From: a virus | Lineage: Monodnaviria > Loebvirae > Hofneiviricota > Faserviricetes > Tubulavirales | IMG/VR virus record: IMGVR_UViG_2703718788_000001 | Direction: 5' to 3' (one strand) | Length of the DNA: 8,117 bases | Translations under genes and position numbers: made by a program | Shown: positions 5,490 to 6,701 of the stretch, piece by piece | Layout of the letters: the number at the start of each line of letters is the position of its first letter | Numbering within the stretch: position 1 is the stretch's first letter | The notes under the pieces: model-generated | The model's database searches: none | Seen by the model: the letters and a program-made list of their open reading frames with translations, nothing else | Told to the model about the DNA's origin: nothing

Positions 5490-6701
5490 ATGCCCGTTAT
5501 TACAGGGAATCTGGGTCAGGGTAAAGGCATTGTGGCGGCTTATTTTGCCTCGCTTTATTATCGCCGTGGGTTGCGGGTTGCTGCAAATTACCCGCTTAAC
5601 ACTGAGTGCATGTGTTCCGGTTCGGATAATCCGGTTACGGTTATTCCTGCCATGCCGCGAATTGAAGACCTGGAACTTCTCGGGCGTGGGTGTCCTGAAA
5701 ATGAAAAAACACGCTTCGGGGCGTTATTTCTTGATGAGTGTGCGACATGGCTGAATACCCGTGGTTTTGCCCGTAAGGACAGATTACCGTTAATCGACTG
5801 GCTGATACATTCCCGTAAGCTGGGCTGGGATGTTTATCTGATTGCACAGCATGAAGATATGATTGATTCCCAGATAATTAAGGCGATGGGGGCTAAAATT
5901 ATTCGCTGCCGCCGTCTTGATGAATTACGTGTTCCTGTGATTACGCCGCTGATGGAATTATTCAGACCGGGAAAAACGGGGATTGCATCGGGGAAAAGGG
6001 GGATTATTCCTCATTATGTTACCGCCAGTTCGTTTCTTTATGATGGCACCACTCATGCTGCCCGACGTCCTGTTGATAAGGTTGTTATTAAGGCCGCTGA
6101 TTATTACAACGTTTATGACACCAATTTTATTTTTTCTGACGGGATGGAACTGCTTAATGGTCGTTTTGTGGATATGCGCGCCGTTTATTCCGTTTTGCCA
6201 GGACGAATGCTTATGACCATGAATCAGTTACCTGAACAATCCGATAAAAAAGCTGCTCCACAGAAAAAACCATGGGGAAAGTTGATTGCCTTTCTTTTTC
6301 TTGTCGTGGTGATGATTGCCATTGCCCGACATTATTTATCCGGTGGTCAGGATGTTCATGTGGCTGCGTCTCCTGTGGTGCAGAACAGCGTGCCTCCCGT
6401 GCCTCATTTGCCTGTCTCAACGGTTGCCCCTGAACCTGAGCAGAAAAAGCCGGATGAACTTCCGGTATCAAAGGAGTGGCGTCTTGCCGGATATGTCAGG
6501 GGAGTAAGCCCGTATTTTGTGTTACTGGGGCCGTCGGGTCAGGTACGGCGTTACTTCTCGTTCCAGTCATGGAACGGCGGCGCGACTGAACTGAATGTTG
6601 AAGGTGAACGGGTGACGTTCTGGTCAGGCCCGTCGGGAACGGCATCAAAGGGTGATGTACTGACTGACAAAATGCTTTCGTTTGATGTGAAGAGTAAATA
6701 A
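5490..6701 (+). CDS. Phage assembly protein pI (Zot-family P-loop NTPase)
   Basis: RBS CAGGAG; Walker A-like GNLGQGKG near the N-terminus; the segment [41 protein letters not shown] closely resembles M13 pI [42 protein letters not shown] (recalled from memory); single TM segment [15 protein letters not shown]. Confidence 0.95.
6207..6701 (+). CDS. Possible pXI-like internal in-frame translation product of gI (restart at Met240)
   Basis: In-frame ATG cluster (6207, 6213, 6219) preceded by AGGA, just upstream of the TM segment; to my recollection this corresponds positionally to the M13 pXI start at Met241 of pI. Confidence 0.35.
   Translation: MLMTMNQLPEQSDKKAAPQKKPWGKLIAFLFLVVVMIAIARHYLSGGQDVHVAASPVVQNSVPPVPHLPVSTVAPEPEQKKPDELPVSKEWRLAGYVRGVSPYFVLLGPSGQVRRYFSFQSWNGGATELNVEGERVTFWSGPSGTASKGDVLTDKMLSFDVKSK

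Follow-up and report, generated by a model that had tools for sequence, protein, structure and literature searches.

A predicted internal start for a pXI-like protein within gene I of an Escherichia coli filamentous prophage

The window analysed here, a stretch of DNA of 8,117 nt, is an E. coli filamentous (inovirus-type) prophage with the gene order of filamentous phages. Its gene I (gI), which encodes an assembly ATPase of the pI/Zot family, carries a cluster of three in-frame methionine codons (Met240 to Met244) toward the end of the region for the cytoplasmic domain, and our modelling leans, by a small degree, toward a pXI-like protein being made from this cluster. In the modelled protein the cluster sits exactly at the boundary between the cytoplasmic domain and the transmembrane (TM) segment, where a pXI-type product would begin, and the layout is as in f1. 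We infer both the ribosome start at the cluster and the pXI-like function of its product by analogy; as modelled, the window is a probable addition to the known nested arrangement of pI and pXI. An earlier, sequence-only reading of the window had proposed a pXI-like protein arising from an internal restart in gI. What survives of that proposal is that the best predicted initiation site of the gene lies in the right place, whereas the start codon it named, the match it drew to Met241 of M13, and its description of the event as a restart do not. Since no in-frame stop lies upstream of the cluster, the event would be independent internal initiation and not a restart.

In the mechanism that we propose, the gI mRNA would yield full-length pI (403 aa) and, through independent internal initiation in the Met240-Met244 cluster, a second product of about 160 aa (17.5-17.7 kDa) without the ATPase domain. 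The main site would be ATG 6213 (Met242, with AGGA 9 nt upstream), ATG 6219 (Met244, conserved throughout the close clade), or both. The predicted nested, pXI-like open reading frame would extend over 6213..6701 on the + strand (162 aa, 17.7 kDa) if translated from Met242, or begin at 6219 on the same strand (160 aa, 17.5 kDa) if translated from Met244. Of pI, the product would retain some 20 residues of the cytoplasmic part together with the single TM helix and the periplasmic beta domain, and by analogy with f1 pXI/G11p it would co-assemble with pI into an inner-membrane ring docked to the pIV secretin.

Direct reading of the sequence confirms that three ATG codons at 6207, 6213, and 6219 share the reading frame of gI, as had been reported, and that they encode Met240, Met242, and Met244. 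The AGGA said to lie ahead of them is present at 6200..6203 (+ strand), in the context ...ttg CCA GGA cga ATG ctt ATG acc ATG aat.... This tetramer, which resembles a weak Shine-Dalgarno (SD) sequence, arises from the codons CCA GGA (Pro237 Gly238) of a conserved LPG motif, and its spacers to the three codons are 3, 9, and 15 nt, respectively. On the + strand, ATG 6207..6209 (Met240) is the least likely start of the three, with the AGGA too close and the codon poorly conserved; ATG 6213..6215 (Met242) is the best predicted initiation codon in the window sequence according to the initiation model and the recoding analysis; and ATG 6219..6221 (Met244) is a clade-conserved candidate to which conservation and recoding both point. 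The linker, 26 residues long, is expected to contain at least one Met (P = 0.56); three Met within five residues at the location of the cluster are unusual (P about 0.004). No internal sigma-70 promoter was found upstream of the cluster on the + strand.

Initiation sites were scored with a reduced RBS-calculator that combines the anti-SD helix energy, a published spacing penalty, and a start-codon term, minus the minimum free energy (MFE) of the segment from −35 to +35, and ranks within gene I cover all ATG, GTG, and TTG triplets in the three forward reading frames. ATG 6213 ranked 1/85 inside gI, followed by ATGs 6207 and 6219 at ranks 2 and 3. For ATG 6213, the AGGA stands at an aligned spacing of 6, with an anti-SD helix energy of −2.7 kcal/mol and a local MFE of −6.3 kcal/mol; for ATG 6207, the aligned spacing of 0-3 incurs a heavy penalty. 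Over the whole + strand ATG 6213 ranked 9/463, where the recognised gene starts took ranks 1, 2, 4, 5, 11, and 28. Controls in the same model behaved similarly, with rank 1/53 for the proven pXI start of f1, 1/65 for IKe Met242, and 2/57 for If1 Met241. The model is unspecific, in that out-of-frame triplets such as ATG 4271 reach similar scores, and the top rank would land on one of these three codons by chance in about 3.5% of cases.

The contribution of the surrounding sequence was assessed against a null of synonymous recoding, in which the 14 codons on either side were redrawn 600 times from the gene's own codon usage. The cluster outscored 99% of these recodings (P = 0.010; P = 0.007 for Met242 and P = 0.015 for Met244), and the f1 pXI start, as positive control, gave P = 0.012. 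Control Mets 229, 155, and 133 gave P = 0.29-0.93, and Met219 gave P = 0.065. The signal in the window comes mainly from weak mRNA structure, as none of the 600 recodings was equally unstructured. Specifically, the mRNA is weakly structured around the cluster (6207..6240, + strand), where centred 70-nt windows have an MFE of −6.3 to −3.2 kcal/mol versus a gI mean of −15.1 ± 4.7 kcal/mol; just 3.5% of gI windows fold equally weakly. Partition-function accessibility, computed for the window and for f1, was less emphatic than the MFE, with the opening energy at the 8th percentile for Met242, the 11th for Met244, and the 26th for f1 pXI.

Sequence comparison and modelling firmly identify gI (5490..6701, + strand; 403 aa, 44.8 kDa) as a genuine pI/Zot homologue. 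The protein matches Pfam Zot (PF05707, E = 5e-9) and PHROG 1675 'morphogenesis (protein I of M13)' (E = 4e-51), and its C-terminal part matches PHROG 197 'Zot-like toxin'. In tblastn comparisons with gene I of IKe, If1, and f1, identity was 32-35% and confined to about residues 3-238 (also given as 3-221), and the best Foldseek match of the predicted fold was the Zot N-domain 2r2a. The Walker A motif (residues 6-13, window 5505-5528) is GNLGQGKG, in which the residue after Lys is Gly and not the canonical Thr/Ser; the f1 counterpart is GKLGSGKT. In the family alignment of 25 sequences, G11, K12, and G13 do not vary, and Walker B D82-E83 is retained.

An AlphaFold2 model built from that 25-sequence alignment (mean pLDDT 73) ends the folded cytoplasmic domain at about residue 247, and Met240, Met242, and Met244 all lie in a short terminal helix at residues 238-245. 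A disordered stretch (248-259) then leads to the TM helix at residues 262-283 (262-284 in a model of the fragment; codons 6273..6338, + strand), which is followed by a disordered Pro-rich linker (285-322) and by a small, conserved periplasmic beta domain at residues about 325-380 (codons 6462..6629, + strand). This domain was modelled confidently, with a pLDDT of about 95 in the fragment model, and would form the main body of the predicted short protein. Kyte-Doolittle profiles likewise place a sole hydrophobic segment here: 19-residue windows above 1.6 start only at residues 260-268, the maximum is 2.38 at residues 265-283, and five Lys occupy residues 253-264 on the cytoplasmic side of the TM helix. 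The claim that the cluster lies just upstream of a single TM segment is thus upheld by both methods.

Conservation was followed in a close clade of 18 distinct gI DNA sequences (83-100% nucleotide identity, no indels) drawn from IMG/VR, RefSeq E. coli genomes, and exact-protein look-ups. Met244 is present in 18/18 of them, in a segment (241-255) with variation at 9 of its 15 residues. Met242 is found in 8/18, with Lys or Thr in the others; Met240 is found in 4/18, with Thr in the remaining 14; and CCA-GGA, which yields the AGGA, is likewise found in 4/18. One relative at 98% identity reads ...CCC GGA CGT ACG CTT ATG ACC ATG..., replacing Met240 by Thr. Of the 13 clade genes that were scored, 12 nevertheless have a cluster codon as their first- or second-ranked internal start. 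Met244 alone is left in the 87% clade and E. albertii, with no well-placed SD ahead of it, yet it is still the top-ranked internal start there, with recoding P values of 0.03-0.04 (up to 0.038). The synonymous-diversity profile of the 18 clade sequences has no dip at the site.

An explanation of appreciable, if minority, probability is that no internal initiation occurs at all, the three Met being ordinary residues of pI and the high score a by-product of A/T-rich, weakly folding sequence that encodes the linker. One linker Met is expected by chance, and the window is not enriched in the combination AGGA-N(3-15)-ATG (13 matches versus 11.0 ± 3.6 in shuffles). The SD, Met240, and Met242 are poorly conserved, 21/45 family representatives have no linker Met, and synonymous-site constraint at the cluster is lacking; the spurious high scorers that the model yields elsewhere and the moderate accessibility by partition function (8th-11th percentile) also agree with this explanation. 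It accounts less well for an in-frame rank of 1/85 at the very place expected for a pXI-type start, where chance would put it in about 3.5% of cases, and for a recoding P of 0.01 on par with the f1 positive control. Met244 is, moreover, invariant within a variable linker, and independent sister clades have strong SDs at the equivalent site, both of which argue for initiation at the cluster.

Where within the region a start would fall can be judged from the same data. The sequence-only reading had placed it at Met240 (ATG 6207), which would be driven by the AGGA of 6200-6203 and be equivalent to M13 Met241; we consider this improbable: the 3-nt spacer is too short for the AGGA to contribute, the codon specifies Thr in 14/18 close relatives, one of them 98% identical, and the numerical match to Met241 is no match in the alignment. 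ATG 6207 opens the cluster, lies inside the unstructured zone, and owes its rank of 2/85 to low structure alone; in the relative L072, Met240 does rank 1/77. Still further down in probability, and in our view very unlikely, is a start at Met229 (ATG 6174..6176, + strand), an in-frame codon 11 codons upstream of the cluster that was missing from the sequence-only reading. Met229, in a VDMRA motif, is the sole Met of the region conserved family-wide (in 90% of members or more), with a GAT ATG CG context that is conserved as well, but in the AlphaFold2 model it falls within the folded domain, with strands 225-228 and 233-235 on either side, which offers a structural explanation for that conservation. 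In addition, ATG 6174 has no SD, a local structure of −15.1 kcal/mol, a rank of 34/85, and a recoding P of 0.29. We therefore rejected it on structure and initiation score, and Met242 and Met244 are the codons at which we would place initiation.

Other routes to a short product were also rejected. The TGA at 6214-6216 of an out-of-frame open reading frame (5983-6216) overlaps ATG 6213 in a coupling-like ATGA; termination-reinitiation was ruled out, as this reading frame lacks a credible start and relatives with AAA or ACA as codon 242 have lost the overlap. TTG 6195, TTG 6282, and GTG 6168 have poor initiation scores.

In f1 and M13, pXI initiates at Met241 of gene I, and it is essential in f1 (PMC5408679). 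The M13 product G11p starts at M241, with an anchor at 254-271 and a periplasmic domain at 272-348 (PMC9228878). What the sequence-only reading said of M13 pXI, a Met241 start and a need for the protein in assembly, agrees with these two sources. For f1/M13 only, pXI is established as made in vivo, associated with pI, and required for virion assembly (Rapoza and Webster 1995, as cited in PMC5408679). Most filamentous phages are stated to have a gene I with such an internal start (PMC5408679). pI and G11p co-purify, and what pXI/G11p does in the assembly machine is still called elusive (PMC9228878).

Like pXI of the Ff phages (f1/M13/fd), the predicted product of the window is nested in frame within a pI/Zot assembly-ATPase gene, and its start lies between the ATPase domain and the single TM helix, which would leave a product made of a short cytoplasmic stub, that helix, and a periplasmic domain. 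Also as in f1, a weak 4-nt SD stands at an aligned spacing of 6 (AGGU in f1, AGGA in the window), the mRNA around the start is weakly folded, and the pIV secretin gene lies downstream. The two differ in the length of the short protein, predicted at 160-164 aa in the window and 108 aa in f1, and in the stub, which in the window has 18-22 residues, contains proline, and is predicted to be disordered, whereas that of f1 is a 13-residue basic segment abutting the anchor. The window has three alternative ATGs where f1 has one, its gI and gIV lie 109 nt apart where those of f1 overlap, and the C-terminal part shared by the long and short proteins has no sequence similarity to that of f1. Specifically, BLASTP of the predicted short product against f1 pXI returned no alignment at E <= 100. 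The absent similarity concerns homology of the C-terminal module and not the mode of expression.

It also bears on the proposed positional match of Met240 to Met241, which is a coincidence of numbering, given the lack of detectable C-terminal similarity and the unequal distances to the TM segment. Met241 of f1 lies 17 residues past its YSYLTP motif and 13 before the TM segment, whereas Met240 of the window follows the corresponding YSVLPG by 2 residues and precedes the TM segment by 22-25. The window residue aligned with f1 Met241 changes with the sequence set, and the equal numbering results from compensating indels.

The predicted internal starts of IKe (Met242) and If1 (Met241) have the same architecture as the window and come top or second in the initiation model; these Mets align with f1 Met241, while those of the window do not. 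A different gene of the Ff phages offers a further likeness, as pX is a C-terminal fragment produced by internal in-frame initiation within the larger gene II (PMC9228878). pX, which is annotated in the f1 and IKe records, differs in belonging to another gene and in having another function, the control of replication. Zot of the Vibrio phage CTXphi belongs to the same pI/Zot family as gI. In the literature consulted, no pXI-type internal start is described for it. A C-terminal fragment of CTXphi Zot has been reported to arise by proteolysis.

Beyond the close clade, comparison was extended to 45 cluster representatives, namely those with an LPG motif and a TM helix. In 20/45 a Met occurs at most 8 residues after LPG, and 21/45 have no Met at all from the LPG motif as far as the TM helix. 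Within the family, the pXI-type signal is clearest in a representative of the P0023 clade (L065), in which the in-frame Met243 follows the SD GGGGAGGU and ranks 1/66; the SD alone gives a recoding P of 0.027. In this locus (about 1300-1330), the conserved LPGR is written with the codons CCG GGG AGG TGG, including the rare Arg codon AGG, and these codons create the near-perfect SD, 8 nt ahead of Met243. In L073 an equivalent in-frame Met, again with a clear SD, ranks 2/68. Met261 of L024 and Met262 of L025 follow AAGGA and AGGAG, respectively, rank 1/69 and 2/65, and lie 21 residues ahead of the TM helix. No usable start, GTG and TTG included, was found in L061, L062, L063 (P0018 clade, ...LPGRWQKRV...), L057/L014, L067, L059/L017, or L028.

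Since about half of the family has no linker Met, and representatives of those clades show no good GTG or TTG in its stead, the pXI-type start would be dispensable or replaced in many relatives and, judging from their sequences, is not universal. Tentatively, and with more doubt than conviction, we suggest that this start is evolutionarily labile in these enterobacterial inoviruses: the initiating Met would move (240, 242, 244; 243; 261-262), SDs would come and go, and whole clades would do without the start.

An internal start in gene I is by itself expected biology for a filamentous phage, and the main added interest of the window lies in how labile the start appears to be among close relatives. 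If that lability is real, a separately translated pXI would not be universally required by pI-type assembly machines, and natural pairs with and without pXI would be available for working out its function. If the start itself is real, close relatives that differ in its presence or codon would be natural material on the requirement for pXI and on its stoichiometry, and the annotations of widespread E. coli inovirus prophages would miss one gene product; the PGAP annotation of gI is solely a 403-aa 'zonular occludens toxin domain-containing protein'.

The genes that flank gI follow inovirus order, with small coat-like (g8-like; 3383-3625), g3-like (3685-5121), and g6-like (5124-5486) open reading frames before it and the gIV secretin gene after it (6811..8040, + strand; Pfam Secretin PF00263, E = 8e-25). 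The gIV secretin is the expected outer-membrane partner of pI and of the pXI-like protein. Its gene opens with ATG ATG (MMRM) and has no recognisable SD, and the 109-nt spacer that separates it from gI (6702-6810) is non-coding, where the f1 counterparts overlap. At the other end of the element, the replication protein is an endonuclease of the P2 GPA type (572-2593; PF05840, E = 3e-48) and no homologue of the pII of the Ff phages. The GTG listed as its start at 572 has a very poor initiation score, so the true start probably lies further downstream. The g3-like open reading frame contains a long Gly/Ser repeat, at about 4250-4620, with some 17 tandem units of the GGSSGGSTSG type, and this repeat produces long spurious open reading frames on the opposite strand and in other frames.

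Megablast of the window against deposited phage genomes gave no match. Prophages in E. coli chromosomes match it at 97% identity over 92% of its length, and a 100% identical gI was found in two E. coli strains, including 2015C-4136CT1, and in one IMG/VR contig (L004); the element is known only from E. coli chromosomal prophage copies and the IMG/VR contig. Two relatives, L057 (E. coli ZH48) and L058 (CUPS TF 6/1_01), belong to a sister clade at 70% identity whose gI encodes 452 aa with a very long linker, and in these loci (positions 2567-3092) gI is followed by a traX pilin-acetylase gene, with no secretin there. The number of matching places per E. coli genome has a median of 2 and a maximum of 27 (strain EC12), and one strain has copies of the element at separate loci, one with 97% identity and another with 100%, which together point to multiple or tandem inovirus prophages per genome. 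In E. coli 2012C-4221 (L055) and A34 (L056), related copies of gI are truncated by the IS elements ISEc31 and ISCro1, and these two are therefore decayed prophages.
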